The notes beneath the pieces were generated by a model. It worked only from the letters and a program-made list of their open reading frames with translations, did not search any database and was not told the origin of the DNA. A stretch of DNA of 42,126 bases from a virus: positions 1 to 42,126 of IMG/VR virus record IMGVR_UViG_3300050122_000047; one strand, given 5' to 3'. Numbering within the stretch: the first letter of the stretch is position 1; each line of letters begins with the position of its first letter. Of this stretch, positions 21,472 to 37,121 are shown in pieces. The translations under genes and the position numbers were made by a program.

Positions 21472-21730
21472 CCGCTTCTGGCGGGACAACTTCGCCACCC
21501 TGGCCGCCGAGATCGCGGCGTCGCCTCTGGTGTCGCGGCAACACCGCCGCAGCGCCGGCCGGCAACTGGCTAAGCAAATGGTCAAGGCCGTGCCGCCGAA
21601 GGTCGCCAGGGGCCGCAAAGCCCTGGGCCCGACCTGGCGGGTCAGCCGGACGGATCGCCGCGCCCGTGCCCGCAAGGTCGCGCGCCAGCTCCACGTCCCC
21701 ATGGTCAGCCGTCAATTCCATTGGGCCTAG
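21434..21730 (+). CDS. Highly basic small protein (98 aa), possibly nucleic-acid binding
   Basis: Track ORF, Arg/Lys-rich, with high GC3. Overlaps the previous gene by 38 nt. Confidence 0.5.
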   Translation: MTKSKSTAASPFSRFWRDNFATLAAEIAASPLVSRQHRRSAGRQLAKQMVKAVPPKVARGRKALGPTWRVSRTDRRARARKVARQLHVPMVSRQFHWA

Positions 21731-21734
21731 GCGG

Positions 21735-22034
21735 GTGGCCACGCTAGAGACCTTCTGGGGCTCCGAAGCCGAGCTGGAGAACCGCCAGCGGCTGTTCCTA
21801 GCCGTGGCCGCCTACGCTTATGAGTACATGGACACGTCGCTGATGTCGGATGAAGACTTCGACAAAGAGTGCCGCGCCGTTCGATTAGAGCTGGACACGA
21901 ACTACCCCGAATGGGACAAGTGGTGGCGCGAGCACTTCACACCGGACACCGGTATATGGATACGACATCACCCCGACCCCGCCGGCCTGCGGGCCTACGT
22001 TGAAAGGTTCCTGAACGATGGAATTGCCGATTAA
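21735..22034 (+). CDS. Hypothetical protein (~99 aa; start uncertain)
   Basis: In frame with track ORF 21666..22034, with GTG 21735 just after the previous stop. Translation VATLETFWGSEAELENRQRLFLAVAAYAYEYMD... Confidence 0.5.
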   Translation: MATLETFWGSEAELENRQRLFLAVAAYAYEYMDTSLMSDEDFDKECRAVRLELDTNYPEWDKWWREHFTPDTGIWIRHHPDPAGLRAYVERFLNDGIAD

Positions 22035-22296
22035 GTCCTGCGAGCACGTCGCGATGACCGTGGACATGCAGTCCGGGCGCTTCGCCGAAACGAACGTCCG
22101 GTTCCTCCAGGTCCGCATCAAATGCGCCGCCTGTGACAAGCCCATGGAATTCATCAGCGAGCCCGTCGGCCCGACGCTCGACCCCGACCTCTGCGGCATC
22201 AGCTTCCCCTACGTCGCCCAAGGCGAGGTCCCCGTGGCTCTCATGGAGCCCATGGCGATCACGCTGGAGGATGCGGATGTCGCCGGGAACGCCTGA
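22018..22296 (+). CDS. Hypothetical protein (92 aa)
   Basis: Track ORF, overlapped at both ends by its neighbours. Confidence 0.5.
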   Translation: MELPIKSCEHVAMTVDMQSGRFAETNVRFLQVRIKCAACDKPMEFISEPVGPTLDPDLCGISFPYVAQGEVPVALMEPMAITLEDADVAGNA

Positions 22297-24202: not shown

Positions 24203-24348
24203 ATCGCCTGCCCTTCGCCTCTGTCATGGCCATTCTGGACAGCTCCGAGACGCCCTTCTACCTGGCCGCCTTCTACGGGGTCAGCCTGGAGACGATCCGC
24301 ACGATCCGGCCCGGCTACCGCTACGAGGAGCCCTCATGTCTGGCGTGA
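24193..24348 (+). CDS. Small protein (51 aa), possible HTH
   Basis: In-frame ATG 24193 within track ORF 24109..24348. Translation MRLDRLPFASVMAILDSSETPFYLAAFYGVSLETIRTIRPG. Confidence 0.45.
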   Translation: MRLDRLPFASVMAILDSSETPFYLAAFYGVSLETIRTIRPGYRYEEPSCLA

Positions 24349-24524
24349 CCTGGGCCGGCAGGGTCAACTGGCGCGGTCAGCCGATCACGCTGCGCGCTGT
24401 CATGGCGTCCAGCTCCTACACGGCCGCCGACGTCGCCCGAGCCCTGCTGATCCACTTCATCCTGACCGACAAGGTCCACGAGCTGACCGAACCCACGGTC
24501 TGGAAAGAGGCCGACAATGGCTAA
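24336..24524 (+). CDS. Small hypothetical protein (62 aa)
   Basis: Track ORF with short overlaps at both ends. Confidence 0.5.
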   Translation: MSGVTWAGRVNWRGQPITLRAVMASSSYTAADVARALLIHFILTDKVHELTEPTVWKEADNG

Positions 24525-25194
24525 AGCAACCGCCTGGAGCTATAGCCGCTACGAGACGTGGGCGCGCTGCCCGCTGCAATTCAAGTTCAAGTTCGTGGAC
24601 AAGCTCAAGGAGGCGGGCTCGCCGGCCATGGACCGGGGCTCGGTTATCCACCTGAGCGCCGCGCACTTCTGCACCGGGCAGGCGGACGCCATCGACCCCG
24701 CGTTCATGCAGCACAAACAGATTCTCAAGCTCGCCGAGGAGATCAGGGCGCACCCCTCCGAAGACAAGGACATCGAGCAACAGTGGGGCTACACGGCCAC
24801 GTTCGCGCCGACGGGCTGGTTCGGTGGGGACACCTGGTTCCGCTCGATCCTGGATGCCGGCGTCGTTTATGAGGACATGCACTATGAGGCCGTGGACTGG
24901 AAGACCGGCAAGCGCTACGGCTCGAACGACGACCAGGTGGAGACCCAAGCCCTGGCCGTGATGAAGCGGAACCCCATGGTTGTCCACGTCACCACGCGGC
25001 TCGCCTACGTTGACAGCGGCGACCAGGTCTTTGCCGAATTCCCTGCCACCCACATGGAAAAGATCGCGGCGAAGTGGCAGAAGAAAGTCACCCCGATGTT
25101 CGCCGACGAGATTTACGCCCCGAGGCCCAACGACAAGTGCAGGTTCTGCACCTGGCGCAGGAGCGGCGATTCGCCGAAATGTGCATTTGGCTAG
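24517..25194 (+). CDS. PD-(D/E)XK nuclease of the Cas4/RecB-like exonuclease type with a 4-Cys cluster
   Basis: 225 aa. N-terminal Cys in WARCPLQF. Catalytic-like ILDAGVVYEDMHYEAVDWKTGK. C-terminal CRFCTWRRSGDSPKC. Confidence 0.75.
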   Translation: MAKATAWSYSRYETWARCPLQFKFKFVDKLKEAGSPAMDRGSVIHLSAAHFCTGQADAIDPAFMQHKQILKLAEEIRAHPSEDKDIEQQWGYTATFAPTGWFGGDTWFRSILDAGVVYEDMHYEAVDWKTGKRYGSNDDQVETQALAVMKRNPMVVHVTTRLAYVDSGDQVFAEFPATHMEKIAAKWQKKVTPMFADEIYAPRPNDKCRFCTWRRSGDSPKCAFG

Positions 25195-25259
25195 GGAACT
25201 TAACAAAGTGTTGACAGTTCACTCTGCGGGACCGACGGGGTCCGCATTGGAGACTAATC

Positions 25260-25658
25260 ATGGCTTATCGACACAAGGGCGAGTACGTCCGCCCTACCAA
25301 GACGCTGGAACTTATGGGCCAGCATGGACCTACCAGAGCTGCCCAGATGCTGGGCGTGAGCACGTCGCGGCTGCACAAGGCCCGGCGGGAAATGAAGGTG
25401 TCCAAGATCGTGGAGGTCGCGGCGAACGCGCTTCTCAAGGGGCCGGCCACACGGGCCGAGTTGTTGTCCTCGGAGGTCGCGCCTGTGGCAAGCGAGCCGC
25501 GTGGCTTGCCCTTAGAGCAAGTCTCCTTCGCGCCGACGCCGGCCGCGCAGCAACGCCACCAGGACGAGACGATGTTCCTGATCTCGGTGCCCACGGAGAA
25601 AGCGGAGCTGGTCAAGCGTTTTGCGGAGATGCTGGACGCGGAGTGCTTATCGGCATAG
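25260..25658 (+). CDS. HTH DNA-binding protein (132 aa)
   Basis: SD GGAGAC. HTH-like PTRAAQMLGVSTSRLHKARRE. Follows a 65-nt gap that contains TTGACA (25211-25216). Confidence 0.6.
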   Translation: MAYRHKGEYVRPTKTLELMGQHGPTRAAQMLGVSTSRLHKARREMKVSKIVEVAANALLKGPATRAELLSSEVAPVASEPRGLPLEQVSFAPTPAAQQRHQDETMFLISVPTEKAELVKRFAEMLDAECLSA

Positions 25659-25667
25659 ATTGGGCGC

Positions 25668-26189
25668 ATGGCTACGACCCCGGAAGGCTACCTGTTGAAG
25701 TTCCTGGTGTCCCTGTGTACGCAGGCGCACCTAGTTCTGATCCGGCTGGCCTTCCGGCCTGGCGTTGCCTCGGGATGGCCGGATGTCCTCATTTTGATAC
25801 CGGGCGGGCGTGCCCTCTTCATGGAGTTGAAGCGTCCGGGTGTGCGCGTCGCGTCCGGCTCGTTACAGGATCACCGCATAGCGGTGCTGGGGACTTTGGG
25901 ATATGACGTTTGCGAGGTCAACTGCGCCCACGAGGTCCGTGAAGCCATCCTGGCAAGTCTGGAAGCCGCTGCCCTACATGGAGCGCGCTCGGGATCACCT
26001 GGTGTCTCGACACTCGGCCGGCCTGCCCCTTCGGCCTGGCTACCGGAAGACCTCCATCACGCTCTCGGCGTTCTGCGAGCTGCAACGGCTCGGGCAAGCG
26101 CGCACGATGCTCGTCATAGCCCCGCTAAAGGTGTGCCGAAACACCTGGCGGCAAGAGGGCGCAAAGTGGGAAGAGTTTCGGCACCTTAA
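25668..26189 (+). CDS. VRR-NUC domain nuclease; the last ~95 codons overlap the SNF2 gene out of frame and look non-native
   Basis: Residues ~30-95 (GWPDVLILIPGGRALFMELKRPGVRVASGSLQDHRIAVLGTLGYDVCEV) fit VRR-NUC. The first in-frame stop is only at 26189. Confidence 0.65.
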   Translation: MATTPEGYLLKFLVSLCTQAHLVLIRLAFRPGVASGWPDVLILIPGGRALFMELKRPGVRVASGSLQDHRIAVLGTLGYDVCEVNCAHEVREAILASLEAAALHGARSGSPGVSTLGRPAPSAWLPEDLHHALGVLRAATARASAHDARHSPAKGVPKHLAARGRKVGRVSAP

Positions 26190-27906
26190 GTTCACGCTGC
26201 TGCACGGGCCCAAGAAGGATGATGCGCTCAAGGAAGTGAGCGACATTTACCTGATCAACCCCGAAGGCGTCGAGTGGCTGGCCAACAAGTTCTTCGGCCG
26301 GTCGCTGCCCTTCGACGTCTGCACCATTGACGAGCTGACCAAGTTCAAGAACAGCCAGTCCGTCCGGGTGAAGAAGCTCCGGCCCCGCCTGGCGCAGGTC
26401 AAATACCGCTGGGGCCTCACCGGCTCGCTGAACCCGAACGGCCACATGGACCTGTTCGGCCAGATGCTCATGCTGGACGACGGCGCGGCGCTCGGCCGCT
26501 ACGTGACGCACTATCGCGACAAGTATTTCCGCGTCGGCTGGGACGGCTTCTCCTACGAGCTGGCCCCCGGTGCCGAGCAACGGATCGCCGAGCGGCTGGC
26601 CCCCTACTGGTTCCGCCTGGAGGATGACGAGCACCTACAGCTCCCGCCCGTGATCCCGGACGAACGGATGCTGACCCTGTCGCCGGCCGCGCAGAAGCTC
26701 TACGACCGGATGAAAAAGGACATGGTTGCCGAGTTGCCCCAAGGGGTGATCACGGCCGCCAACGCCGCCGCCTGCTACTCCAAGCTGGCCCAGATGGCCA
26801 ACGGCGCGGTGTACCTGGAAGGCAAGCGCGAGTATGCCCTGATCCACGACGAAAAGCTGGACGCCCTGGAAGACCTGGTGGCCGAGCTGAACGGCGAACA
26901 GATGCTGGTCGCCTACGAATTCAACCACGACTTCGAGCGGCTGCGCGAGCGGTTCGGCGTCATGGACAAGATCACCGGCCAGAAGGTGCTGCCGTACCTC
27001 GGCAAGGGCGTCACCGCCGCGCAAGAGGACATGTGGATCAAGGCCTGGAACCGGGGCGAGCTGCCGCTCCTGTTCGCGCACCCGGCGTCGGCCGGCCACG
27101 GGCTGAATCTCCAGGAAGGCAACGCGCATCACCTATGCTGGTTCTCGCCGATCTGGGACTTTGAACTATACGACCAGTTCATCGGCCGCCTTTGCAGGTC
27201 CGGCAATGTATCCGTTCAGATCATTAACCACACTTTGATGGTTAAAGGGACTATTGATGAGTTGAAGGTGTCCGCACTCAATGATAAGGACACTACGCAA
27301 GGGCGTTTCTTGAAGGCGCTCAACACCGAAATTCGGCGATCTGCCGAGACCATGGCCGCGATGGACACAGCGGTATCTAAGGAGACCGACATGGTTGCCC
27401 GACTTTCCCGCCCCGGCGGCGCTGCCCCTGCGGCGGCTCCCGCTGAATCTGATGCCAAGCCCGCGCCCAAGGGCTGGGGCTCACGCGGTGCCACTGCTGC
27501 GGCCCCGTCTGATACCACCGAGGACCAGCGCGAACGCATCCAGTCCGCCATCACTGGCGGCACCCCGGAAGAGATCGCCCTGGCCGCTGCGGAAGGTGCC
27601 CTGAACGCTGGTGGCGCTGAGCTGCCGGCCGATGCGCCCAAGACCCGCACGCGCAAGACCGCCGACGCTGCGCCGGCTCCGGCCGCCGTGGCAACGAACG
27701 TCCCCGACATCACAATCGGCGACACGAACGTCTCCGTTGACGGCGCTGCCGTGGCCATCATCGTCAAGGCCCGCGTCGAGCTGTTGAAGCTGGTCTTTGC
27801 CGATCCTGAAACCACGTTCGATGACGGCCTGGAAATGGCCACCGACCTCTGGGCCTGGTGCGTCGATCCCGAAGTGCTGGCCAAGTTCGAGCCGCAGGTG
27901 TTCTAA
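25903..27906 (+). CDS. SNF2/DEAD-like helicase with a ~170-aa Ala/Pro-rich C-terminal extension (start ATG 25903 or GTG 25939)
   Basis: KPLPYMERARDHL; GYRKTS (motif I-like); TIDELTKFKN (motif II); GLTGSLNPN (III); FAHPASAGHGLNLQ (V); FIGRLCRSGN (VI). Confidence 0.8.
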   Translation: MTFARSTAPTRSVKPSWQVWKPLPYMERARDHLVSRHSAGLPLRPGYRKTSITLSAFCELQRLGQARTMLVIAPLKVCRNTWRQEGAKWEEFRHLKFTLLHGPKKDDALKEVSDIYLINPEGVEWLANKFFGRSLPFDVCTIDELTKFKNSQSVRVKKLRPRLAQVKYRWGLTGSLNPNGHMDLFGQMLMLDDGAALGRYVTHYRDKYFRVGWDGFSYELAPGAEQRIAERLAPYWFRLEDDEHLQLPPVIPDERMLTLSPAAQKLYDRMKKDMVAELPQGVITAANAAACYSKLAQMANGAVYLEGKREYALIHDEKLDALEDLVAELNGEQMLVAYEFNHDFERLRERFGVMDKITGQKVLPYLGKGVTAAQEDMWIKAWNRGELPLLFAHPASAGHGLNLQEGNAHHLCWFSPIWDFELYDQFIGRLCRSGNVSVQIINHTLMVKGTIDELKVSALNDKDTTQGRFLKALNTEIRRSAETMAAMDTAVSKETDMVARLSRPGGAAPAAAPAESDAKPAPKGWGSRGATAAAPSDTTEDQRERIQSAITGGTPEEIALAAAEGALNAGGAELPADAPKTRTRKTADAAPAPAAVATNVPDITIGDTNVSVDGAAVAIIVKARVELLKLVFADPETTFDDGLEMATDLWAWCVDPEVLAKFEPQVF

Positions 27907-27940
27907 CAGGTCCGGGTGTCACGAGCACCTAGACACGAGG

Positions 27941-27971
27941 AGGCTCCGGGGCTATGCTCTGGAGCCTTTTT
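27941..27971 (+). terminator. Rho-independent terminator after the SNF2 gene, upstream of the holin
   Basis: aggctcc (27941-27947) / ggagcct (27961-27967) followed by TTTTT (27967-27971). Confidence 0.6.
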
Positions 27972-27986
27972 CGTGGAGACGAGACA

Positions 27987-28250
27987 ATGCCCCCGATCAT
28001 CCCGCAGCTCATTCCCGAGTGGAAGTCCGCCTGGCGCTGGTCGTCCGTTCGCCTGATGGCGCTGTCCGGCATGATCCAAGGCGTCCTGATGGCGTTCCCG
28101 GACCAGCTCAAGACCTACATCAGCCCGGACGTGCTCAAGTACCTGTCCGAGGCGGCGCTGGCCATCCTCATTCTCGCCGGCATTGGCCGGATCACCGCCC
28201 GCCCTGGAGACACCGATGTTCAACCCCCTAAGCCTAATTCCCAACCCTAA
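27987..28250 (+). CDS. Putative holin (87 aa, two hydrophobic segments)
   Basis: ATG 27987 with GGAGA 7 nt upstream; the track start 27954 lies inside the terminator. Translation MPPIIPQLIPEWKSAWRWSSVRLMALSGMIQGVLMAF...AALAILILAGIGRI. Directly precedes the spanins. Confidence 0.5.
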   Translation: MPPIIPQLIPEWKSAWRWSSVRLMALSGMIQGVLMAFPDQLKTYISPDVLKYLSEAALAILILAGIGRITARPGDTDVQPPKPNSQP

Positions 28251-28773
28251 GACCCTGCTGGTCGGCTTCGCAGCCGGCGCGCTCCTGGTCGGCGTCCCCG
28301 CCTCGCTCGTGGTCCACAAGATGGACCAGGCCGCGCTGGAGAAAGTGCAGCTTGCCGACGCCAAGGCCGCGACCGTGGCCGTCTCCCAGGCCGCCGCGAC
28401 CACCCACACCCTCGACACGCAGAACGGCACCGCTGCGGTCGCTGAGACCAAAGCCCAGGTGCAGATCGTCCACGACGTCCAAACCGTCACGAAGGAGATT
28501 CCCGTCTATGTCACCCCTGCTCAAGATGCTCGTTCCCCTTGCGCTGTCACTGTTGGCCTCGTGCGCATCCTCTACGCCAGCGCCCACGGCCTCGATCCCG
28601 CCAGCCTCACTCCTCCCGCCGGCTCCACTGATGACTCCTGCACGGCCGTTTCAGTCTCTGACCTGGCCGCCGCTCTTGCCACCGACTACGGCGTCGGCCG
28701 CGCCAATGCCGAACAGCTAGACGCCCTGATCGCGGCTGTGAAAGCGAACGCCCAGGCTCTCAGCGCGCCCTAA
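28216..28773 (+). CDS. i-spanin (Rz-like): N-terminal TM anchor plus a helical periplasmic domain
   Basis: ATG 28216 with GGAGA upstream. TM segment LLVGFAAGALLVGVPASLVV. It contains an embedded lipoprotein ORF in the +1 frame. Confidence 0.65.
   Translation: MFNPLSLIPNPKTLLVGFAAGALLVGVPASLVVHKMDQAALEKVQLADAKAATVAVSQAAATTHTLDTQNGTAAVAETKAQVQIVHDVQTVTKEIPVYVTPAQDARSPCAVTVGLVRILYASAHGLDPASLTPPAGSTDDSCTAVSVSDLAAALATDYGVGRANAEQLDALIAAVKANAQALSAP
28508..28720 (+). CDS. o-spanin (Rz1-like) lipoprotein, fully embedded in the i-spanin gene
   Basis: MSPLLKMLVPLALSLLASCASS carries the lipobox LLAS|C. The mature part is Pro-rich. The architecture is the lambda Rz/Rz1 embedded type. Confidence 0.65.
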   Translation: MSPLLKMLVPLALSLLASCASSTPAPTASIPPASLLPPAPLMTPARPFQSLTWPPLLPPTTASAAPMPNS

Positions 28774-28810: not shown

Positions 28811-28847
28811 AAAAAGAAGGCCCCTGGATTGCTCCGGGGGCCTTTAG
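28811..28847. terminator. Bidirectional hairpin terminator at the convergence of the two arms
   Basis: aaggcccctgga (28817-28828) / tccgggggcctt (28833-28844), ~12 bp with one G-U pair. Flanked by AAAAAGA on the left and TTT on the right, so the minus-strand reading ends in TTCTTTTT. Confidence 0.7.
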
Positions 28848-28880: not shown

Positions 28881-29444
28881 TTAGGAAAGGAGGGTCCAGT
28901 CCTCGGCCAGGACATCGCCTTGGGAGGCCAGCCATGGCACGACGGTATCCTGCGCCGTCTTCATGTCAATGTGGCTCTGGTAGTTGATCTCGGTGCCCTC
29001 GGGATAGATGCCCAGCAGCGGGGCGCGGTTGACCTTGAAGGTCGAGCCCGGCACCAGGAACAGGAACATGCCTTTGCCGTTCCAGCCTAGGCGCGTGACC
29101 TTCATGCCGTCTTTGAGGTAGCGCACGGCCTGGCCGAAGTCGAACACCGTGGCCGGCTGTTGGGCCTGCTGCGCGTGCAGCGTCGGCGCGATCTCGCCGG
29201 CCGCGACGGCCTTCTGGTAGGGCATCCAGCGCCAGGTGTCGCCGTTCGGCGTCTCGTCCGGGCCGGTGTTTTCGGGAACGTGGGTGAACACCGCAGCGTG
29301 GTCGCGAGTGAACACGATCAGGTCCACGTCATTCGTGAGCTGGCCGACGCCCTTGCCATAGACATGGGTTACGATGGCGGGGTGGGTCTCGACGCCGCCG
29401 AGGCGCTGGTAGAGGACTATCCGGCCGAGGGTTGGTTTTGTCAT
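28881..29444 (-). CDS. Fusion protein: N-terminal small beta (SH3/Tudor-like) domain plus C-terminal DUF2829 (Thoeris anti-defence Tad2-type) domain
   Basis: 187 aa. The C-terminal FDFGQAVRYLKDGMKVTRLGWNGKGMFLFLVPGSTFKVNRAPLLGIYPEGTEINYQSHIDMKTAQDTVVPWLASQGDVLAEDWTLL is a near-consensus DUF2829 pattern. ATGA-coupled to the HNH gene. Confidence 0.65.
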   Translation of the reverse strand: MTKPTLGRIVLYQRLGGVETHPAIVTHVYGKGVGQLTNDVDLIVFTRDHAAVFTHVPENTGPDETPNGDTWRWMPYQKAVAAGEIAPTLHAQQAQQPATVFDFGQAVRYLKDGMKVTRLGWNGKGMFLFLVPGSTFKVNRAPLLGIYPEGTEINYQSHIDMKTAQDTVVPWLASQGDVLAEDWTLLS

Positions 29445-29782
29445 TGCTTCATCTCCTTTGCGCGGCGCAGATCGCGGCGCTTCTGATTCGTCTTGTGGGT
29501 CACCAGCTCCAGGTGCTCCGGGTTACAACAGCGTCGGCCGGCGTTGCCGGGAAGCTCCACACAAGTATGGTCTAGCTGCTTCTTAGGCGGGATCGGGCCG
29601 AAGCGGATCACCCACATAACGATATGAACGGCCATGGTCGCGCCGTCAATGCAGATACGGCCGTACCCGCCGCCGCGCCCTGATCCTGAGTCTGGCCCAT
29701 CCCAGCGGTGGCACCCACAGGGCAACACCGTGACGCGGGCCATGACCTTATCCCAGAGCGTTAGGCGGCGGTCGGTCATCAT
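29441..29782 (-). CDS. HNH endonuclease (113 aa)
   Basis: ATG 29782 in an ATGA overlap with the lysozyme stop. Motifs CGCHRW, GYGRICIDGATMAVHIVMW, LDHTC...CCNPEHLELVTHKTN. Confidence 0.75.
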   Translation of the reverse strand: MMTDRRLTLWDKVMARVTVLPCGCHRWDGPDSGSGRGGGYGRICIDGATMAVHIVMWVIRFGPIPPKKQLDHTCVELPGNAGRRCCNPEHLELVTHKTNQKRRDLRRAKEMKQ

Positions 29783-30231
29783 GGCAGGTCGAAGTAGCGT
29801 TCCTCGGCCTGGCGACGGGTCAGAAGGCCCGCCAGCACCGCGCCGGCTTGTTTGTCCCACTTGGGGAACTCGTTCGCCGCGCCGGCCAGGTCGCCAGCGT
29901 TCAGCAGCCGCAGCATGGTCGAGCCCAGGAAGTTGCCGGAGCCGATGTTGAACACCAGCGACACCAGGGCGTCGAACTCGTGCTGCGTGAGCTGGACGCC
30001 GGTCACATGGCTGTTGACCAGCCGCGCGGCCGAGGCAACGTCGGACACCAGCCAGGCGTTGGCCTCGTCCATGGTGCAGGTCGTGTCCGCTGTGACGCCG
30101 TTCGTGTGGCCAAAGCCGGCGGTCCAGACGTCCTTCGGGGTTGGCTTGTAGCCGGTGGGGCGGAACTTCTCAAACCCCTTGAGGAAGTCGTAGAGCCACT
30201 GACTCGGGGTCAGGTTGTTGACGTAGTTCAA
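29779..30231 (-). CDS. Endolysin, GH24 (T4/lambda-type) lysozyme
   Basis: 150 aa. FLKGFEKFRPTGYKPTPKDVWTAGFGHT (catalytic Glu context) and LVSLVFNIGSGNF. TTG start in a TTGA overlap, preceded by AAGGAGG. Confidence 0.8.
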   Translation of the reverse strand: MNYVNNLTPSQWLYDFLKGFEKFRPTGYKPTPKDVWTAGFGHTNGVTADTTCTMDEANAWLVSDVASAARLVNSHVTGVQLTQHEFDALVSLVFNIGSGNFLGSTMLRLLNAGDLAGAANEFPKWDKQAGAVLAGLLTRRQAEERYFDLP

Positions 30232-30782
30232 AGCCGTACCTCCTTAAAGGTGCCGAGGACGGGAGCGCCGTTCACGACCTGGTTGCCCTGGCGCATCTCC
30301 ACGGGGGTGCCGTTGACGCCGTCTTTAAGGGCGATCTCCAGCGCGGCCATGGCGTTCCAAGCCAGGTGCGCCAGGTGGGCGATCTGGCTCTCGTCGTCGT
30401 AGCGTTCGATTGCGGCCTTGGTCATGTGCCGGCCGATCCCGTCGCTGTAGCGGTTGAAGCCGTTGGGCACCTTCTGCCAGTCGGTCTTATATTCGCCGTC
30501 ATTGTATTTCCTGGCCCCGTACTCGGACACCAGGGCCACGGCGTTCATGGCGCGCGGGAAATAGGCGATGAAGCCACATACGACCGGGGCCTTGCCCACG
30601 TCCATCTTGCGGGCACCGTTCGCGCCATCGCCCACGCGGGCCTCGCCGAACGCCTTCTGGCCCAGCGGCACGATGGCCGGGACGGACACGGCCTCGCGAG
30701 CCGACGCGCCTCTGCTGAGATGCTTGCTGTAGTCCCTCTGCGCCTTCGCAAGCGTGATCGGGCGGGGTGCTGTTTTAGCCAC
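30228..30782 (-). CDS. DUF5664-type protein (domain found at the N-terminus of phage dATP/dGTP diphosphohydrolases)
   Basis: 184 aa, GTG start. MDVGKAPV...AMNAVALVSEYGARKYNDGEYKTDWQKVPNGFNRYSDGIGRHMTKAAIERYDDESQIAHLAHLAWNAMAALE matches the D.GK...G..KY....W....y.dA..RH.....D.ES...HlaH pattern. Confidence 0.55.
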   Translation of the reverse strand: MAKTAPRPITLAKAQRDYSKHLSRGASAREAVSVPAIVPLGQKAFGEARVGDGANGARKMDVGKAPVVCGFIAYFPRAMNAVALVSEYGARKYNDGEYKTDWQKVPNGFNRYSDGIGRHMTKAAIERYDDESQIAHLAHLAWNAMAALEIALKDGVNGTPVEMRQGNQVVNGAPVLGTFKEVRL

Positions 30783-31428
30783 GGGTCAGTCTCCTATAGC
30801 GGGTCATAAACTCGCCGCGCGAGCGGGAGATCGACCAAGGGATGATAAGCTCGGGCCAGGTCTGCGGCGGTGTGCCCCAATCAACCAGGCCCAGGTTGTT
30901 CTGGAGATCGCGGTGCTCGGCCGCGACGGCGAGATAGTCCTGGTGCTTGACCTCCGGCGTCATCTGCGCCGGCAGGCCGAACTTGGCCCGGATCACAGCT
31001 TCGACGCCGTGCTCTAGCTCTTTCCAGTAGTCCCGGCCGCCGGACAGGGTTGCCAGGTTCATCTTGATCGGCTTGGCCATGTCGCCCAGGACGTACTCCT
31101 GCGCGTCGTGCAGCAGCCCTTCGAGCTGTAGCTCCGGCGGCAGGTGATCGGACACCAGGCACGAGTGCTGAGCAACCGTGTAAATCTCGACACTGTCTTT
31201 CAGCGCGCCGTTGAACCGGCAGAGCCTGGACAGGTGGGAGGCGATGTCCTCGATATGGACGTCGTCGTCGGACGGGACCAGGGACCAGAACGGATGACCC
31301 GAGGCGAGGGTTTGATTGTACCCCCGCCCCGTGTCAGCTCCGGCCATCTTGCCCGTGTCGAACTTCGCCATCTCTTGCCTGCGCAAGTAGTCGGCGCTGT
31401 CCAATGCGAGTTGAAGGCCGTCGCCCAT
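30775..31428 (-). CDS. HD-domain phosphohydrolase (YfbR-like 5'-deoxynucleotidase type)
   Basis: 217 aa. IEDIASHLSRLCRFNG, YTVAQHS, LLHDAQEYVLGDMAKPIK. Confidence 0.7.
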   Translation of the reverse strand: MGDGLQLALDSADYLRRQEMAKFDTGKMAGADTGRGYNQTLASGHPFWSLVPSDDDVHIEDIASHLSRLCRFNGALKDSVEIYTVAQHSCLVSDHLPPELQLEGLLHDAQEYVLGDMAKPIKMNLATLSGGRDYWKELEHGVEAVIRAKFGLPAQMTPEVKHQDYLAVAAEHRDLQNNLGLVDWGTPPQTWPELIIPWSISRSRGEFMTRYRRLTRG

Positions 31429-31775
31429 CAGTCCTCTTCCTTGAACACTGACCCGTGAGCCTTGCGCTCGGCCGCGTCGATAGCGGTCTCATATAGGTCC
31501 AGGATGGCCTCGCCCTCGGCGCGCTTGGCCGCGTCTTGGCGGCGGCGCTGGAGCACCTTGCGGATCGTGGGCACGTCGTAGCCGTTGCCCTTGGCCTCGG
31601 CGTAGATTTCCTTGCGGTCCTCGCCCAGGCCTTCGATCTCTTCCGAGACGCGCTCGATCCGCTCCACGATGCCCAGGAGCTGGGCGGACGTGTTGCTGTG
31701 GAGCACGTCGATGGCGGCTACAGGTTCAGGTGCAGCCTTGGGGGGTTTGGCGGCCCCATCCGCTTTCTTGACCAC
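31428..31775 (-). CDS. gapR: GapR-like (DUF2312/UPF0335) DNA-binding protein
   Basis: 115 aa, GTG start. QLLGIVERIERVSEEIEGLGEDRKEIYAEAKGNGYDVPTIRKVLQRRRQDAAKRAEGEAILDLYETAI aligns closely by eye with Caulobacter GapR (...EVYAEAKGNGFDVKVLKKVVRIRKQD...DAILDLYLSAI). Confidence 0.8.
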   Translation of the reverse strand: MVKKADGAAKPPKAAPEPVAAIDVLHSNTSAQLLGIVERIERVSEEIEGLGEDRKEIYAEAKGNGYDVPTIRKVLQRRRQDAAKRAEGEAILDLYETAIDAAERKAHGSVFKEED

Positions 31776-31999
31776 TACTCGTCATCCTCGAATGTGGCCT
31801 TGATCCGGGAGGCGACGCGAGCCGCCTTGTCGGATTCAGCCTGCGCGGCCATGGCCGCCTCGTGGTGGGCTTCCCGCTCGACAAGGTGATCTTGTGCGCG
31901 CTGGGCGTGGTGCGCTTGAGCTGCATCCAGCTTCTTGCGCACCTTCACGAAAGCGGACCTGATCTGGTCCACGTCGTGTAGGCGTAGAATGTCTCCCAT
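31775..31999 (-). CDS. His/Ala-rich coiled-coil protein (74 aa)
   Basis: Track ORF with SD CAGGAGA. Sequence AQAHHAQRAQDHLVEREAHHEAAMAAQAESDKAARV. Confidence 0.55.
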   Translation of the reverse strand: MGDILRLHDVDQIRSAFVKVRKKLDAAQAHHAQRAQDHLVEREAHHEAAMAAQAESDKAARVASRIKATFEDDE

Positions 32000-32019
32000 C
32001 GGTATCTCCTGTTGTGGGA

Positions 32020-33282
32020 CTACTTCCCGTCCTGATCCAAGAGGATCAACGGCTTGAGGTCCACCATGCCATGGCGGCGATGGTGGAAAGCGAGGAGCTG
32101 CGTGGGCGGCGAAGGCCTCATGCGGAAGCTCTTGGCGTACTCGCTATAGCCGACGGTCGTGCCGTTGGACATAACGAAGCCATTATATGCCGGGGTGTGG
32201 AAGTGGCCGTGGTCCACCCGGTCGATCCTGTAGCCCAGGGCGGCCTGCTCCATGATGACCTTCTGCGCGCCGCGCATGATGGTGGCCATGGGGCCGATGA
32301 AGCCCTGCCCGCCGCCGGAGCCCATCCGGTCGCCGTGGGTCAAGACGATGTTCTGGTTATAGATCGGGAACCGGACGTCGAAGCTGTCCGAGGTCTGGAA
32401 GGTGACGCGGCTGTCGCGGGCGAAGTGCTTGCCCAGCATGTAGTTGATCAGCCGGTCGTAGCTGTGGGCGCTCGACTTCTTCGTGGTGGGCTTCATCAGG
32501 TTCCGGTCGTGGTTCCCGGCCGCGCCAGGGGTCTTGACCTCGACCTTGCCGAAGGCGTCCACCAGCTTGAGGATGCCGGCGCTCTCGGTCTCGAAGGCGC
32601 ACTCGACGGCCTCAATGGGGGTGAGGTCGTCGGTCTCTTTCAGCTCGTCATGGATGCCGCCGGAGATGGTGTCCCCGCCGCGAGCGTAGATGATACCCGG
32701 ATATTTCCAGTCCGCGCCGCTGTGGCTGTGGGACAGGTAGATGGTGAGGTCGATCATCTGGCGGTAGCGCTTGATAAAGGTGGCGCTGTCATAGCCGTAG
32801 CCCGTCTCGGTCTCCTCCGGCCGCACCACTTCGCCGATCTGGAAGTCGCTGGTGAGGAGGTAGGGGATGTGCTCGTGCTGGGACTTGGAGGGCTTCGTGT
32901 TCGAGGCCCAGAGCGCCGGCTCCAGCGAACGCTTGGCGGCGTACTCCAGGTCTTTCAAGCGGTCTTGCAGGTTGGCGATCAGCCGCGTGGCGTCCTTAAG
33001 GCGGGCGCGGGCATGGCTGTCCGATTCCTTGGCGCGGTGCAGCGCCAGGTCGTCCTCAATGGTCCGGTCAGCGTCCGGCTTGAGGAGGCGCGCGTGTCCA
33101 CCCCGAGGGATGTTGAACGGCTGGATCAAGGCCGGGAAGCGGCTCTTGGCGCGGCGGAAGCGGTTGACGTAGGTGGGCGCGGGGATGTCCATGGACAGCG
33201 CGGCCTGCGTCTTATTGCCTTGGTTCGTGTTGAACGCGGCAATGACCGCCTTGCACTCAGAGTCGCTAAGAATCCTGCCCAT
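32020..33282 (-). CDS. N-terminal HTH plus coiled coil plus calcineurin-like metallophosphoesterase domain protein
   Basis: 420 aa. HTH-like GNKTQAALSMDIPAPTYVNRFRRAK. MPE motifs LLTSDFQIGE (I, with Q in place of H), GGDTISGG (II), AGNHDRN (III), LTHGD (IV), DHGHFH (V). Confidence 0.7.
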   Translation of the reverse strand: MGRILSDSECKAVIAAFNTNQGNKTQAALSMDIPAPTYVNRFRRAKSRFPALIQPFNIPRGGHARLLKPDADRTIEDDLALHRAKESDSHARARLKDATRLIANLQDRLKDLEYAAKRSLEPALWASNTKPSKSQHEHIPYLLTSDFQIGEVVRPEETETGYGYDSATFIKRYRQMIDLTIYLSHSHSGADWKYPGIIYARGGDTISGGIHDELKETDDLTPIEAVECAFETESAGILKLVDAFGKVEVKTPGAAGNHDRNLMKPTTKKSSAHSYDRLINYMLGKHFARDSRVTFQTSDSFDVRFPIYNQNIVLTHGDRMGSGGGQGFIGPMATIMRGAQKVIMEQAALGYRIDRVDHGHFHTPAYNGFVMSNGTTVGYSEYAKSFRMRPSPPTQLLAFHHRRHGMVDLKPLILLDQDGK

Positions 33283-33496
33283 GTGGTGTCTCCAGGGGAT
33301 GACGTTTTTCTAACTGCCGTAAGCGGCGAATTGTTACGTAGAACTGTAGCCCGACACCGCACACGGAAGCGAACGCGGACAACATGACCGCAATGTCGGA
33401 CACATGCAAGCCCCAAAACGTAAAGGCTGCTGCTGTCGTGGCCAGAGTGGTCGCAGGTGACATAGACTCTAGCCCTCGGATAAAGTGGGTGTTCAT
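33266..33496 (-). CDS. Small two-TM membrane protein with a charged C-terminus (holin-like); atypically low GC3
   Basis: 76 aa. ATGA-coupled to the ejection-protein gene. TLATTAAAFTFWGL and IAVMLSAFASVCGVGLQFYV followed by TIRRLRQLEKRH. Many A/T-ending codons (TTT, CTA, TCT, ACA, GTA, TTA, AAA). Confidence 0.55.
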   Translation of the reverse strand: MNTHFIRGLESMSPATTLATTAAAFTFWGLHVSDIAVMLSAFASVCGVGLQFYVTIRRLRQLEKRHPLETPHGQDS

Positions 33497-35568
33497 TGTC
33501 CTTGGCCTCCGAATTGAGGAGCGACCTCGGCTGTGGCGGTGCCTCCGATAGAAAGCGCGAGGTCACGTAGCTGCTGCCGGGTAGCGCCCGCCTTTTTCAA
33601 GGCGTTGATAGCGTTTTGTGCTTGAGCCGGATCAGTTAGCGCCTTGCTGATGCTATCTTGCATCCCTTGGCTTAATTTTCCGAAACTAGGCACGGTTTTC
33701 ATCAGGTGGAATACGGTCGAGGCCGGCGAGTGCGCGACGGTCGCCCCGATAGTCTGGGCCGCCTGCCGAGCGCCGTTGGCGGGGTTGTCTTCGGGGTTGA
33801 TACCACCGGGCGCGATGCGGTTCAAGGCGTTGGACCCCTGTTGAATCGCCGCACCCGTCTGGGCCACGTCCTGCGCTTGGCCAGGGCTGAATGTCTGAGA
33901 CAGGTTCGCCTGAGCGCCTGGCTCCTGGACAGCTCCAGCCGCGTTCGCCGCGCCGCTCGTAGTGTCGCCGGCTTGGTTCTGGAGGCGCGTGGAGACGCCC
34001 GACTGATAGCCGGCTTGACCGGACGGGGACGCCAGGTCGCGGATCAGGGACGGGTCATCCGCCTCGGAGACCAGCTTGCCGGCCACGCCGTGCTTAAACC
34101 CGTTGATATGCTGGCTGTCCTGGGTGAACTGGTCCAGGGCGTTGTGATAGTCCGCACCCTCGGGCGTGCCGCTGTCCACCAGCCCAGCGATCCGGCCGCG
34201 CAGGTCTCCAGCCGCTTGGGCCGCGCCGCTGTTGGCGTTCGGGTTGCTCGGGTTGGCGAAGGCCGCCTGGCGGGAGCCGAGGCTCTGGCGCAGGGTGTCC
34301 ACGTCGCCGATGGACAGCGCGTTGGACGAGCCGGAGGCGTCGATGTCGCCCACAGCCTGGTTGACCCGCGAGCGCAGGCCGGACAGGACCGGAGGGCTGG
34401 TCGCATCGCGCAGGGCCGGGTCCGTGAGGAGGTCCAGGTGTGAGTTGTCCAGGGTGACGGGCTGCGAGCGGATCGGAGCCATGGCGGACGTCATCGTGCG
34501 TTCCCGAGCCTGGGTCAGGTCCGAGATCGACTGCGGCGCGTTGCCGGTCACAGCCTGCACGCGCTGCGGCAGAGTGGTCGTGGCCTGTTGGTCGAAGCGC
34601 TGCGCGGCGTTGTTCATGGCCTCGCCTATGGTGCTGTTGTCGGCCGCCAGGGACGCCAGCGTGCCTTGCGACTTCGCACCCACGAGCGCGGCGATGGGGG
34701 CCGGCTGGCCGGTGAACTTGAGGAAGTTGTCGGACGCGGCTTGCAGAGTCTCCGGGGTCTCGCCCAGCTTCTGAGCCAGCAGCAGCATCCCCTTGGAGAT
34801 CACAGGCTGAGCGGCCTTCGCGATGACGCCGGCCACCTTGCTCACGGCAGGGTTCAGCACCGCGCCGCCGAGGGCCGCTTCGGTGATCTGGTCGCCGTTC
34901 TCGCCTTGGAGCGCAGCCGTGCCGCCGCCGACGGTCGCACCGACCGCAGCACTCTTCGCCACGTTGGCGATGGCATTGCCAGTTTTGGCCACAGCGCCGG
35001 CACCTTGCGCCGCTTCGGTCGGGGACAGGGCGTCCACGGCACCGCCGACCACACGGCCGACGCCAGGTAGAGCACGAGCCCCTTTGATCGCATCCGCGAT
35101 AGCGCCGCCGCCCTCGACCGCGCCCGCGACGTCGCCGACCAGGGAGGCCGTGGGGTGCGCTGTCCGCTGGTCAGCCTGGCCTTGAGCCGCCGCAGCCTTC
35201 GCTTGGTCGTAGGTCGCGGGCGTGCCGCCGGCACCGATCTCCTTGAGGAGCGCCTGGCCGGCCGGGTGCTGGCTGAGCGCAGAGTAGAGCGCGGCCGAGG
35301 CCTTGTCGGCCAGGCCGAACGTGCCGGAGTTGACCGCCTCGTGCGTACCAGCCGCCATCGACTGCGCGAAGTTGCTGTTGGCGAAGTCCGCCAGGCCCGC
35401 TTGGATCGGGTGAGCCGCACGCCACGCAGCCGAAGGACCGCTCGGCGCGGCAGGCGCGGCGTTCGTCGGCGGGTAGTTCTTGGCCATGGCCGCGCTGATC
35501 TGGTCGTCTGACATCCCGTCGGGGAAGTTGACAAGGGTACCGTCTGGGGCTCGAACTTGCGTAGGCAT
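33493..35568 (-). CDS. Large ejection/internal virion protein (gp16-position analogue)
   Basis: 691 aa, Ala/Gly/Gln-rich. N-terminus MPTQVRAPDGTLVNFPDGMSDDQISAAMAKNYPP. TAATG overlap with the upstream gene. Confidence 0.6.
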   Translation of the reverse strand: MPTQVRAPDGTLVNFPDGMSDDQISAAMAKNYPPTNAAPAAPSGPSAAWRAAHPIQAGLADFANSNFAQSMAAGTHEAVNSGTFGLADKASAALYSALSQHPAGQALLKEIGAGGTPATYDQAKAAAAQGQADQRTAHPTASLVGDVAGAVEGGGAIADAIKGARALPGVGRVVGGAVDALSPTEAAQGAGAVAKTGNAIANVAKSAAVGATVGGGTAALQGENGDQITEAALGGAVLNPAVSKVAGVIAKAAQPVISKGMLLLAQKLGETPETLQAASDNFLKFTGQPAPIAALVGAKSQGTLASLAADNSTIGEAMNNAAQRFDQQATTTLPQRVQAVTGNAPQSISDLTQARERTMTSAMAPIRSQPVTLDNSHLDLLTDPALRDATSPPVLSGLRSRVNQAVGDIDASGSSNALSIGDVDTLRQSLGSRQAAFANPSNPNANSGAAQAAGDLRGRIAGLVDSGTPEGADYHNALDQFTQDSQHINGFKHGVAGKLVSEADDPSLIRDLASPSGQAGYQSGVSTRLQNQAGDTTSGAANAAGAVQEPGAQANLSQTFSPGQAQDVAQTGAAIQQGSNALNRIAPGGINPEDNPANGARQAAQTIGATVAHSPASTVFHLMKTVPSFGKLSQGMQDSISKALTDPAQAQNAINALKKAGATRQQLRDLALSIGGTATAEVAPQFGGQGQ

Positions 35569-37121
35569 TATTCGATCTTTCCGGTCTGCGGGTTGTAGGT
35601 CTTGATCTGGGCGGTCTGCGTCGTGGCGTTGGACTTCACCGTGGCCAGGACGTGACCCGTGGGGGTAACGATCTGATTCCGGTTCTGGGTGCCGAAAGCC
35701 ACATGAACGTGATTGTTCGTCGGGTCAATCTCGACCTGGTCGAACGGGATACCCTGCGTCGAGAGACCGTGCGCCACGCGGATCGCCATGGTGCTGAGCG
35801 GCGTTTTGCCGGTCGGGTCCACGAAGTCCCAGGCCTCGGGGGCCGTGGGCGAGCCCTGCATGTGCTCGGACGTGGCGCTGCCGTGCGCGGCCTTGTTCTC
35901 CGCAGCCGTGCGGTAGCCCGATTTGACCTGGATGGGCACGCCCGCGAGCTGACTGATCGCCGCCGTGGCGTTGGCCGTGGCTTCCGCGCCGGACTTGGCG
36001 TTGCCGGCCAGGGCGTGGACCCCCGCGTTCCAGGCAGAGCTGGCCGCGCCGGCCGGGGTGGCCGACGTCGCGAGGGGCGTTTCGTCACGGGCGAGGACGT
36101 TGGCGGTGAAGCCCCGGACGTGCTCCAGGTTCTGGAGGACAGTCGCGGGATCGCCACTCGGGTCCAGTGAGCCCAGCGCGCCGCCGGCCGCCGTAAACTC
36201 GGTGTTCGTGGTGCGGCTCATGCCGACGCCCTTGGCCTTGGCGTCCAGCATGTCCTGAATCGCGACGTTGCCTTGGATGCTCTTGACCAGCGCCTCATAC
36301 TTCTGCACCGCAGAGCCAGGGACGTGCGCCATGGCGGCCCGAAGCGTGCTGTTCGTGGGCATCTGGTGGACCAGCGCCTCGGCGGCGTCGATCTGCGAGG
36401 ACACCGAGCCGAGGATCGCGCGACGGGTGGGCGTGAGGCCTTCCGAGCCGCCGCCGGCCGCGCCCGCCGCCTTCTGGGCGTCGGCGGTGGCTTTGGTCGC
36501 TTGAGCCTGGGTCAGGCCCAGCTCGGCGGACTGCTGCGCGATGACGCCAGGAGCCAGGGCCACAGCCTGGTTGATGTCCTGCTGGGTCTTCTGGTTGGCC
36601 AGGTCTTTCGACTGCGTGCTCAGGAGTGCATCGACCGGAACCTGCGCGTTCGTCGCGTTGGTCGCGGTGATCCGGCCCGGCTGCGTCGCGGCGGTGTAGG
36701 CGTTGGTTTGCTGGCCCGCCGTGACAGTGTTCGCGTTCTGGGCGTTCGTGTCGCTGATCTGCTGCGGCACGTTCGCGTTCGTGGCGTTGGTCGCCGCGAT
36801 GGCTCCAGGCTGGGTCTCGGCGGAAAAGGCGTTCTTAAACTTGCCCTCGGCGATGATGTTTGCGTTCTCGGCGTTCGTGTCGCTGATCTGCTGGGGCGTG
36901 TTCGCGTTCAGGGCGTTGGTCGAGGCGACCTTACCGGGCATCGTCTGGTTGTTGAACCCGACTTGCTGCATGGTCGCCTGAGTCGTGGCGGCCTCCGGGT
37001 CAAGCGCGGTCGGGCCGTAGATGGCCGCCAGCGCGTTGAACGCCGTGTTCTTCCGGGTTGCATCGTCCAAGGCCCCGACGTACTTGCCGCCAGCGATCAG
37101 GTCCGCTCCAGCGTCCGCCAT
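35568..37121 (-). CDS. Ejection/internal virion protein with a C-terminal M15-type zinc peptidase (cell-wall hydrolase) domain and N-terminal 43-aa tandem repeats
   Basis: 517 aa. KSGYRTAAENKAAHGSATSEHMQGSPTAPEAWDF...NNHVHVAF (about nt 35691-35957) fits the SGYR...S.H..G.A.D...HvH pattern. Confidence 0.7.
   Translation of the reverse strand: MADAGADLIAGGKYVGALDDATRKNTAFNALAAIYGPTALDPEAATTQATMQQVGFNNQTMPGKVASTNALNANTPQQISDTNAENANIIAEGKFKNAFSAETQPGAIAATNATNANVPQQISDTNAQNANTVTAGQQTNAYTAATQPGRITATNATNAQVPVDALLSTQSKDLANQKTQQDINQAVALAPGVIAQQSAELGLTQAQATKATADAQKAAGAAGGGSEGLTPTRRAILGSVSSQIDAAEALVHQMPTNSTLRAAMAHVPGSAVQKYEALVKSIQGNVAIQDMLDAKAKGVGMSRTTNTEFTAAGGALGSLDPSGDPATVLQNLEHVRGFTANVLARDETPLATSATPAGAASSAWNAGVHALAGNAKSGAEATANATAAISQLAGVPIQVKSGYRTAAENKAAHGSATSEHMQGSPTAPEAWDFVDPTGKTPLSTMAIRVAHGLSTQGIPFDQVEIDPTNNHVHVAFGTQNRNQIVTPTGHVLATVKSNATTQTAQIKTYNPQTGKIE
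36636..36920 (-). repeat. In-frame 129-bp tandem repeat, ~2.2 copies (43-aa units TNA(L/T)NAN(T/V)PQQISDTNA(E/Q)NAN...)
   Basis: ggcgttcgtgtcgctgatctgctg occurs at 36741 and 36870 (period 129). Protein residues 68-110, 111-153 and 154-162. Confidence 0.8.

Follow-up and report, generated by a model that had tools for sequence, protein, structure and literature searches.

The pre-early operon A2-005-A1-003-002-dmp of phage T5, which destroys the host chromosome and catabolises nucleotides, codes for a helix-turn-helix (HTH) protein (A2), a protein with two transmembrane segments (005), the metallophosphatase A1 and the HD protein Dmp; A1 is sufficient for the degradation of host DNA, and Dmp is an HD phosphatase of 5'-deoxynucleoside monophosphates (dNMPs) (10.64898/2026.04.02.716235). 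A further family acting on deoxynucleotides is DUF5664 (dGTP_diPhyd_N), whose stand-alone member in Arthrobacter phage Wayne is a pyrophosphohydrolase with the preference dATP > dUTP > dGTP; only this Wayne protein and a fusion protein of SH-Ab 15497 have been demonstrated to convert deoxynucleoside triphosphates (dNTPs) into dNMPs and pyrophosphate (PPi) (PMC12884076). The sponges of the Tad2 family vary in their ligand, which may be gcADPR, His-ADPR, cCMP/cUMP or N7-cADPR (10.1101/2025.08.24.671296). Domain types known from these systems meet in a block of nine minus-strand open reading frames (ORFs; 33496-28881, numbered g1 to g9 from the 5' end of the block) in the IMG/VR virus record IMGVR_UViG_3300050122_000047, the complete 42,126-nucleotide stretch of which is called the window below. 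An initial annotation had regarded all nine genes as one nucleotide-targeting module for host takeover or counter-defence.

In our view the block, which closes the late operon at its 3' end, is probably not one system but made up of four mutually unrelated layers; of its composite nature as such we are more confident still. The first layer (g1-g6) would be a lineage-conserved sub-block concerned with DNA and deoxynucleotides, the second a GH24 endolysin (g7) acting with the holin and spanin of the plus arm, the third a selfish HNH homing endonuclease (g8) and the fourth a terminal add-on, the fusion of a small N-terminal domain with a sponge of the Tad2 family (g9). Lysis genes, morons and homing endonucleases routinely accumulate where phage late operons end, and the reading as a single module overstates the case. 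All parts except g1 and g3 belong to known families; the under-studied element is the HTH-metallophosphoesterase (MPE) encoded by g2, together with its link to DUF5664.

Evidence for this comes from the neighbourhoods of these genes in other phages. MPE loci were gathered from IMG/VR, GTDB genomes and JGI metagenomes, together with contigs carrying close homologues of DUF5664, MPE or Tad2 (cited below by L numbers). The census comprised 56 non-redundant loci (MPE below 90% mutual identity, at least 1.2 kb of downstream sequence) and counted genes on the same strand; L006 was left out, since it has only the HTH module in common. Downstream of MPE, DUF5664 was found in 22 of these loci, GH24 in 18, GapR in 17, HD in 10 and HNH in 2, whereas Tad2, which accompanies the block only in the window and its closest relatives, occurred in none. 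Conversely, 80 other Tad2 loci from IMG/VR contained no MPE, GapR, HD or HNH gene at all, and GH24 and the N-terminal domain of g9 were seen once each; DUF5664 was present in only 2 of the 80, and a general link between Tad2 and DUF5664 was therefore rejected. The co-occurrence which the initial annotation had proposed to examine is thus found for MPE, GapR, HD and DUF5664, whose joint presence and order are repeated in numerous related phages, but not for Tad2 and HNH. With Tad2 missing from all MPE loci and its partners nearly absent from the Tad2 loci, the claim that the nine genes act as one system could not be upheld.

The backbone of the phage family around the window (MPE identity of at least 49%) consists of the ejection genes, a two-transmembrane protein, the HTH-MPE, a small variable ORF, GapR and the lysin, with optional genes for a sulfotransferase-like protein, for HD and for DUF5664 or DUF6378 between GapR and the lysin. 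Beyond this family, DUF5664 follows immediately after MPE, in some cases overlapping its stop codon, in eight lineages with 34-52% MPE identity (L022, L028, L033, L037, L038, L044, L082 and L125), which include prophages of Phreatobacter, Chelatococcus, Rhodospirillaceae and Acetobacteraceae; the domain was confirmed by Pfam in L044, L038, L027 and L022. The conserved unit is, hence, [two-transmembrane protein]-HTH-MPE-(GapR)-(HD)-DUF5664. Other MPE neighbours in distant phages and prophages are SprT-like Zn-metallopeptidases and a dNMP kinase, again enzymes concerned with DNA or nucleotides, as well as lysins; SprT-like genes lie beside HTH-MPE in L001 (8639-8986) and L047 (9074-9436), and the downstream slot of L041 is occupied by a dNMP kinase (PF21448). 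The HTH-fused MPEs represent a large, highly conserved family devoid of a Pfam model and, because they are repeatedly linked to DUF5664, HD, SprT-like or dNMP-kinase genes, a tractable candidate for a new DNA- or nucleotide-catabolic function of phages.

The g2 product (32020-33282, minus strand; phrog_284, E 4.5e-32) is an HTH-coiled coil-MPE protein of 420 residues without any match in Pfam, its MPE models included. It has 427 homologues on contigs of approximately 40-45 kb, and over 120 of these exceed 50% identity. In an alignment of 34 sequences the invariant residues are D146-x-Q148, G203-D204, G256-N257-H258-D259, H316 and G359-H360-x-H362, so that MPE motifs II-V are fully kept while motif I, normally D-x-H, is invariantly D-x-Q. 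The AlphaFold2 model (pLDDT 81) shows the HTH at residues 7-48, a long helix of 44 residues (75-118) and the MPE domain at 137-413; modelled separately, the catalytic domain (pLDDT 81, pTM 0.85) adopts the beta-sandwich MPE fold. Sequence and profile searches of the PDB with g2 matched no chain, and a PDB comparison became informative only with the domain model in place of the full-length one. Foldseek then returned 29 matches at E <= 1e-3, all of them MPEs, headed by Mre11 proteins (E 6e-7; 4NZV, 4TUG, 3QG5, 3THN; TM-scores 0.39-0.44), with 5'-nucleotidases, LpxH and SoxB following within a ten-fold E-value. The same architecture was found by Foldseek in many phage proteins, often mislabelled as 'DNA polymerase II small subunit'. 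Compared to Mre11/SbcD, g2 shares the invariant motifs II-V and the nearest PDB folds but differs in the D-x-Q form of motif I, in a TM-score of about 0.4, in lacking a capping domain and a Rad50/SbcC partner (no Rad50-like gene adjoins g2), and in its N-terminal Fis/PucR-like HTH and long coiled coil. Judged from the models, g2 looks more like a DNA-bound Mre11-like enzyme than like a signal-degrading phosphodiesterase. A protein of 599 residues in L006 (5406-7205) matches the MPE family in the N-terminal HTH alone (residues 3-53, hhalign probability 87%); its C-terminal part is different and unannotated, and its gene lies directly upstream of an HD-DUF5664 pair.

The adjacent g4 (31428-31775, minus strand) encodes a phage GapR homologue with a Lys/Pro/Ala-rich N-terminal extension (PF10073, E 1.5e-24). 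GapR homologues in phages have reportedly been noted before. With 85.8 bits against a cut-off of 22.6 for PF10073, but 90.7 against 140 for the NCBIfam GapR equivalog NF052541, the g4 product is by its sequence a homologue and not an orthologue of GapR; it shares the DNA-binding domain with GapR of Caulobacter crescentus, an alphaproteobacterial nucleoid-associated protein, and differs from it in scoring below the equivalog cut-off, in the N-terminal extension and in its conserved position beside a phage MPE gene. A phage-borne GapR conserved next to a nuclease-like enzyme is a lead worth keeping. A sulfotransferase-like P-loop protein of about 200 residues (…ILxPRTGS(G/S)T…YRHMEADG…), devoid of a Pfam match, recurs after GapR in relatives (L013 5441-6046, L012 7461-8066, L023 9919-10542, L003 11793-12746); the L003 version forms a fusion with a DUF5664 domain, which suggests a functional link to nucleotide chemistry.

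The product of g5 (30775-31428, minus strand) is an HD phosphohydrolase of the YfdR/YfbR 5'-deoxynucleotidase type (phrog_318, E 3e-51) with the HD motif residues H88, H107-D108-A-Q-E111 and D116. It matches PDB entry 2GZ4 (Atu1052) at E 2e-15 and stays below the cut-off of the Pfam YfbR-like family (PF12917; 19.3 versus 25.9 bits). The family is present in 288 phage records, including lambdoid and phiCbK-like ones, and tblastn matched phage genes annotated as yfdR. Wherever both genes occur, HD lies directly upstream of DUF5664. In L050, the closest MPE relative (83%), the HD gene (2869-3751) apparently consists of two overlapping pieces in different frames, being either a frameshifted pseudogene or an assembly error. 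The g6 product (30228-30782, minus strand; PF18909, E 1.8e-18, 66.8 bits versus a cut-off of 27) is a stand-alone DUF5664 protein and a predicted dNTP pyrophosphohydrolase, in whose family G89, R118-H119 and H136 are invariant across 12 diverse members. Of 50,697 phage records only 690 contained DUF5664, for the most part those of phiKMV-like, LUZ24-like and Vibrio phages, and the organism lists of DUF5664 and MPE phage records do not overlap. A role in lysis, implied by the PHROG label 'endolysin; inhibits RNA polymerase' as well as by the annotation of many Vibrio phages, was rejected as a propagated annotation because stand-alone DUF5664 has a measured dNTPase activity; in the present phage family the gene lies directly upstream of the lysin. 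DUF6378, which takes the DUF5664 slot in L004, L014 and L015, was considered as a divergent DUF5664 and, with an hhalign probability of 0.1%, treated as unrelated. The pairing of HD with a DUF5664 protein is also reminiscent of Z-genome phages, in which DatZ (HD/YfbR-like) occurs with MazZ or DUF550-DUF5664. However, a PHROG and Pfam scan of window ORFs gave no PurA/PurZ-like match, Pfam detected no DUF550 domain in the block, and the HD protein groups with YfdR-type phage enzymes; a PurZ/DatZ/MazZ-like role was rejected, since neither PurZ nor DUF550 turned up in these scans.

The two small proteins of the sub-block, listed as 'holin-like' and 'His-rich coiled coil' by the initial annotation, matched no family that would bear out these names; overall, eight of its nine family calls are backed by HMMs, motifs or structure, and GapR, DUF5664, GH24, HNH, Tad2, HD and MPE were all recovered. 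The 76-residue g1 product (33266-33496, minus strand) has two hydrophobic segments and a charged C-terminus and matches no family in Pfam, PHROG, NCBIfam or PADLOC. At least 10 non-redundant loci have a homologue of it directly upstream of MPE. As a holin it would have a fitting two-transmembrane topology, but five genes separate it from GH24 and it matches no holin family; a second holin, an antiholin or a SieA-like exclusion protein are guesses. The helical, His-rich g3 product (74 residues; 31775-31999, minus strand) has no match in Pfam or PHROG and a single homologue, a 78-residue ORF of L050 with 57% identity. Its position is held by unrelated small ORFs in L009, L021, L023 and L025 and thus constitutes a variable slot.

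Beyond the family memberships, the synteny and the assignment of the lysis genes, which the data show directly, we propose for the sub-block a scenario whose substrates, direction of flux and timing are those we infer. The HTH-MPE would be a dimeric, DNA-tethered, Mre11-like metal phosphodiesterase cutting DNA, while the GapR homologue would bind DNA and modulate its topology. DUF5664 would split dNTPs into dNMPs and PPi, and the HD enzyme would dephosphorylate dNMPs to nucleosides, so that g1-g6 jointly might break down DNA and drain or sanitise the deoxynucleotide pools late in infection. That DUF5664 and HD act as dNTP and dNMP hydrolases appears likely. For the MPE the balance tips slightly towards action on DNA rather than on small nucleotides, and a catabolic or takeover function of the sub-block, as opposed to a housekeeping one, is rather doubtful. 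Among the products for which the initial annotation envisaged an action on nucleotides or their derivatives, DUF5664, HD and Tad2 are supported by their families, and the MPE is the one that looks, by the same narrow preference, DNA-directed and Mre11-like.

Several points weigh against this picture. The synteny of MPE, GapR, HD and DUF5664 could reflect common descent alone, as the census was made without phylogenetic correction. Motif I of the MPE carries an invariant Gln for the usual His, and the nuclease activity is a prediction; in the models the TM-scores to any solved MPE amount to only 0.3-0.45, a Rad50-like partner is missing, and 5'-nucleotidases and LpxH match almost as well as Mre11. 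Late expression is deduced only from the position of the genes and the absence of consensus promoter matches. With respect to the composite nature of the block, the nine genes are translationally coupled and share a single terminator and should therefore be co-expressed, which is compatible with cooperation, and the adjacency of DUF5664 and Tad2 in the myovirus L002 (described below) hints at an occasional link between the two.

Of the competing explanations the one that survives best, although we regard it as unlikely, considers HD, DUF5664 and MPE as housekeeping enzymes for the sanitation of dUTP or non-canonical dNTPs and for recombination and repair, which would aid phage DNA replication, play no part in any conflict with the host and have reached the late operon by historical accident. 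In many phages, replication that depends on recombination is assisted by Mre11-type nucleases. The nin regions of lambdoid phages commonly contain YfdR-type HD genes, phiKMV-like, LUZ24-like and Vibrio podoviruses widely carry DUF5664 among their DNA-metabolism genes, and a scan of plus-arm ORFs revealed no dUTPase. The Wayne DUF5664 enzyme, moreover, has a dUTPase-like activity (PMC12884076). This explanation conflicts with the location of the genes outside the replication arm and beside the lysis genes in nearly all relatives and with the lack of a Rad50-like partner, and it leaves the conserved link to GapR and the two-transmembrane protein unexplained.

A functional analogy between g1-g6 and the T5 pre-early operon, by which the window genes would likewise destroy the host chromosome and catabolise nucleotides, is somewhat less probable again. 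The order of domain types (two-transmembrane protein, HTH/MPE, two small genes, HD) corresponds in both, the fold of the MPE is nearest to Mre11, and the established activities of A1 on host DNA and of Dmp as an HD phosphatase would fit such a role (10.64898/2026.04.02.716235). A weak C-terminal similarity between the MPE and A1 near GHxH (BLASTP E 0.008) extends over 63 residues only. Against the analogy, hhalign gave a probability of 0.3% for MPE versus A1, no alignment was obtained for HD versus Dmp or g1 versus T5.005, and A1 is not among the named top BFVD matches of g2, several of the matches being nameless. Homology to A1, T5.005 and Dmp was rejected on the basis of these sequence and profile comparisons, and the comparison is confined to functional analogy. 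The window block also differs in the fusion of HTH to MPE, in the additional GapR and DUF5664 genes and in its place at the late-operon 3' end of a temperate lineage, many relatives having an adjacent integrase, whereas the T5 genes are pre-early. Equally improbable in our estimation is the related idea that MPE and DUF5664, often joined by HD, GapR and the two-transmembrane protein, form an uncharacterised functional unit of alphaproteobacterial phages and prophages which is T5-like but evolutionarily independent. If true, such a unit would attack DNA and drain or rewire deoxynucleotide or signal pools for host takeover or competitor exclusion, and the Tad2 fusion would add a second, signal-sequestering layer. 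No lead is as yet surprising enough to shift current views.

The sub-block might also be a moron that is expressed from the prophage in temperate relatives and protects the lysogen, for instance through depletion of dNTPs or degradation of incoming DNA, thus serving defence and not counter-defence, but this we consider very unlikely. In its favour, at least five relatives have the block at one end of the prophage, directly preceding the integrase gene, and some defences are known to work by depleting dNTPs or by nuclease attack. P22-like phages have the accessory genes sieA and immI downstream of their ejection genes; that moron region resembles the window block in its variable accessory content, in its place behind the ejection genes of a podovirus and in beginning with a gene for a small membrane protein, but the genes themselves are wholly different. 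Against the idea, PADLOC assigned no defence function to g1-g6, a separate promoter signal was not found, the window has no detectable integrase, and late lytic expression is suggested by the translational coupling with the ejection gene. The original notion that all nine genes form one undescribed nucleotide-targeting module for host takeover or counter-defence is hardly credible, for its supports, namely the tight coupling with a common terminator, the four or five products that plausibly touch DNA, nucleotides or nucleotide signals and the gene order retained from HD to Tad2 in L049, are outweighed by the two censuses, by the deletion of HNH in L049, the affiliation of GH24 with the lysis cassette and the variable g3 slot, by the integrase that replaces HNH and Tad2 in several relatives, and by a PADLOC output restricted to one weak homing-endonuclease match (g8, E 1e-4).

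The composite reading assigns the distal three genes to separate layers. The last of them, g9 (28881-29444, minus strand), encodes a two-domain protein composed of an N-terminal domain (residues 1-97) and a Tad2/DUF2829 sponge domain (101-186; PF11195, E 8e-24, 84.4 bits versus a cut-off of 25 over residues 102-185). The DUF2829 part of the 'SH3-like/DUF2829 fusion' named in the initial annotation is thereby confirmed, and the N-terminal part, putatively SH3-like, proved to be a real, recurrent domain. Among solved structures the Tad2 domain matches ModTad2 (9EIB) and Tad2 (8V3E) at E 1e-18, SPO1 gp34.65 (8SME and 8WJE) at E 2e-14 and 8KBI at E 5e-13. In HgmTad2, mutation of the W21/N22/G23 loop or of the W87/L88/S90/T92/D93 segment abolishes gcADPR binding (10.1101/2023.11.15.567273). 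Mapped by motif spacing and alignments, g9 keeps GWNG and W-L-A-S-Q-G-D at the same spacing, with Gly at the position of Thr92. Its residues 101-186 align end to end with the known sponges (SPO1 gp34.65, HgmTad2/AcrIIA7, ModTad2), the segment W-L-x-S-x-x-D-V-L-A-E-D-W being kept, and the beta2-beta5 insert is short as in SPO1 Tad2, which binds gcADPR only, unlike that in HgmTad2, which also binds cGG. Deviations from the known Tad2 proteins are the N-terminal domain of about 97 residues, the Gly in place of the adenine-contacting Thr92 and the location at the end of a late operon. Based on these sequence features, the domain can with good confidence be expected to bind an ADPR-derived or cyclic-nucleotide signal, and g9 would most likely sequester Thoeris signals of the gcADPR type.

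Among 3450 homologues of the Tad2 domain the same fusion as in g9 was found in P0130 and P0131 only. The N-terminal domain (29148-29444, minus strand), characterized by the conserved motif WMPYQKAVAAGxIxPTLHA, occurs elsewhere mostly as a stand-alone protein of 80-120 residues and, in P0255, P0261 and P0308, fused to PF13876 (N4 gp49/Sf6 gp66). The sharing of this domain with Tad2 hints that PF13876 might be another ligand-binding module. In L002 (MW202475, an unrelated myovirus) a DUF5664-like gene is located immediately upstream of a stand-alone Tad2 which is 71% identical to the g9 domain (1623-2550). The same contig codes at 21-464 for an HslV-like protein, labelled 'ATP-dependent protease hslV' in the record, and a small HslV/proteasome-like protease gene lacking a Pfam match ends the block in L004 (11926-12477).

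The g7 gene (29779-30231, minus strand) encodes a GH24 endolysin (PF00959, E 3e-39, 134.5 bits; phrog_7, E 3e-48) that works with the holin (27954-28250; phrog_1356, with an L049 homologue assigned to Pfam DUF7940) and the product of the spanin-like gene (28183-28773), both encoded on the plus strand. Two converging arms thus divide the lysis cassette between them, with GH24 about 1 kb away from holin and spanin, whose homologues occupy the same place in L003, L012, L013, L021, L025 and L049; a lysin fills the g7 slot in nearly all relatives. The following g8 (29441-29782, minus strand) is an HNH_3 endonuclease gene (PF13392, E 1e-9, 38.1 bits versus a cut-off of 24.8; phrog_1872, E 7e-37), which most likely starts with the ATG at 29782 and not as the longer GTG ORF; the copy in L049 starts identically. 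L049 is about 80% identical to the window in nucleotide sequence across the block region and displays the order HD-DUF5664-GH24, HNH remnant and the same Tad2 fusion. An internal deletion of about 135 nucleotides has reduced its HNH gene to a remnant of 46 codons, the first 31 residues of which are identical to g8. As the gene is internally deleted there, we read g8 as a dispensable, mobile and selfish endonuclease of the homing type. A terminase-associated cos endonuclease was rejected in view of the distance to the terminase gene, the P22-like portal and the deletion in L049. Apart from the weak homing-endonuclease match of g8, PADLOC found no defence-system match in the block and thus provided no support for membership in a known defence system.

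The nine ORFs, all recovered where the initial annotation had placed them, directly follow the last ejection-protein gene, whose stop overlaps the start of g1 in ATGA (33496-33493). The end of g1 is overlapped by 17 nucleotides by g2 (ATG at 33282), and g2 and g3 (ATG at 31999) are separated by a gap of 20 nucleotides containing AGGAGA. The subsequent junctions are TAGTG at 31775 (g3/g4), TGATG at 31428 (g4/g5), GTGGCTAA at 30782-30775 (g5/g6), TTGA at 30231-30228 (g6/g7) and ATGA at both 29782-29779 (g7/g8) and 29444-29441 (g8/g9), so that every overlap listed previously was found in the sequence. Such tight start/stop coupling is usual in phage operons and by itself no evidence of a system. 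An intrinsic terminator follows at 28811-28843 (minus strand), composed of a GC-rich stem of 11 bp containing one mismatch, a GCAA loop and then UUCUUUUU. Its RNA hairpin folds with -25.1 kcal/mol (z -2.6) on the minus strand and also strongly on the plus strand (z -3.3), and is therefore a bidirectional terminator common to both converging arms. Within the block no minus-strand terminator and neither a Caulobacter-type (TTGAC-N-GCTA) nor a convincing sigma-70-like promoter was found, the sole minus-strand sigma-70-like match lying inside the start of g9. TTGAC-N15-19-GCTA, an approximation of the Caulobacter-type promoter, matches the window six times on both strands versus 0.6 matches expected (485-512, 5251-5275, 7887-7912, 9570-9593 and 15210-15237 on the minus strand, 18574-18598 on the plus strand), and four matches lie on the minus strand in the capsid/packaging part of the late arm. 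The lack of internal promoters and terminators is weak negative evidence. Judged by position, the nine genes would close, at its 3' end, a late (virion) transcription unit about 24 kb long, with which the 'host takeover' of the initial annotation fits poorly, all the more as no promoter or terminator signal was seen inside the block.

The window corresponds approximately to a complete phage genome of about 42 kb. Its minus arm (9475->747, then 42101->33493) codes for the large terminase (7844-9475), a P22-like portal, scaffold, major capsid, head-closure, tail and ejection proteins, and its plus arm (12055-28773) for a primase, PolA, a PD-(D/E)XK nuclease and an SNF2 helicase and ends in the holin and the spanin-like gene. 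The portal is only about 30% identical to those of P22-like phages, and an INPHARED search yielded no cultured relative close at the DNA level. Short DNA matches of the window were to Caulobacter and Brevundimonas phages, and the top genome match of the g2 MPE was a prophage of a Caulobacteraceae metagenome-assembled genome (59% identity). Together with the alphaproteobacterial GapR, these matches make an alphaproteobacterial host likely; the phage is an uncultivated podovirus with a P22-like portal, and its host probably belongs to the Caulobacteraceae. An integrase was not detectable in the window by tblastn. Homologous tyrosine integrase genes are found directly past the lysozyme gene in at least five relatives (L009 9228-10199, L012 9612-10625, L013 7957-8982, L023 11684-12643 and L025 12720-13691), at the position taken up by HNH and the Tad2 fusion in the window. 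The window phage may, for these two reasons, be a lytic derivative of a temperate lineage.

Outside the block, the GC content falls sharply from about 0.64 elsewhere to 0.52 where the two arms diverge (11001-12000), a region which is probably regulatory or an origin. It is followed by an ORF of 372 residues (12055-13173, plus strand), whose sole match is phrog_1362 of unknown function. In the second from last ejection protein (35568-37121, minus strand), approximately 100 C-terminal residues match the endolysin family phrog_894 (E 5.5e-9), consistent with an ejected cell-wall-degrading domain.

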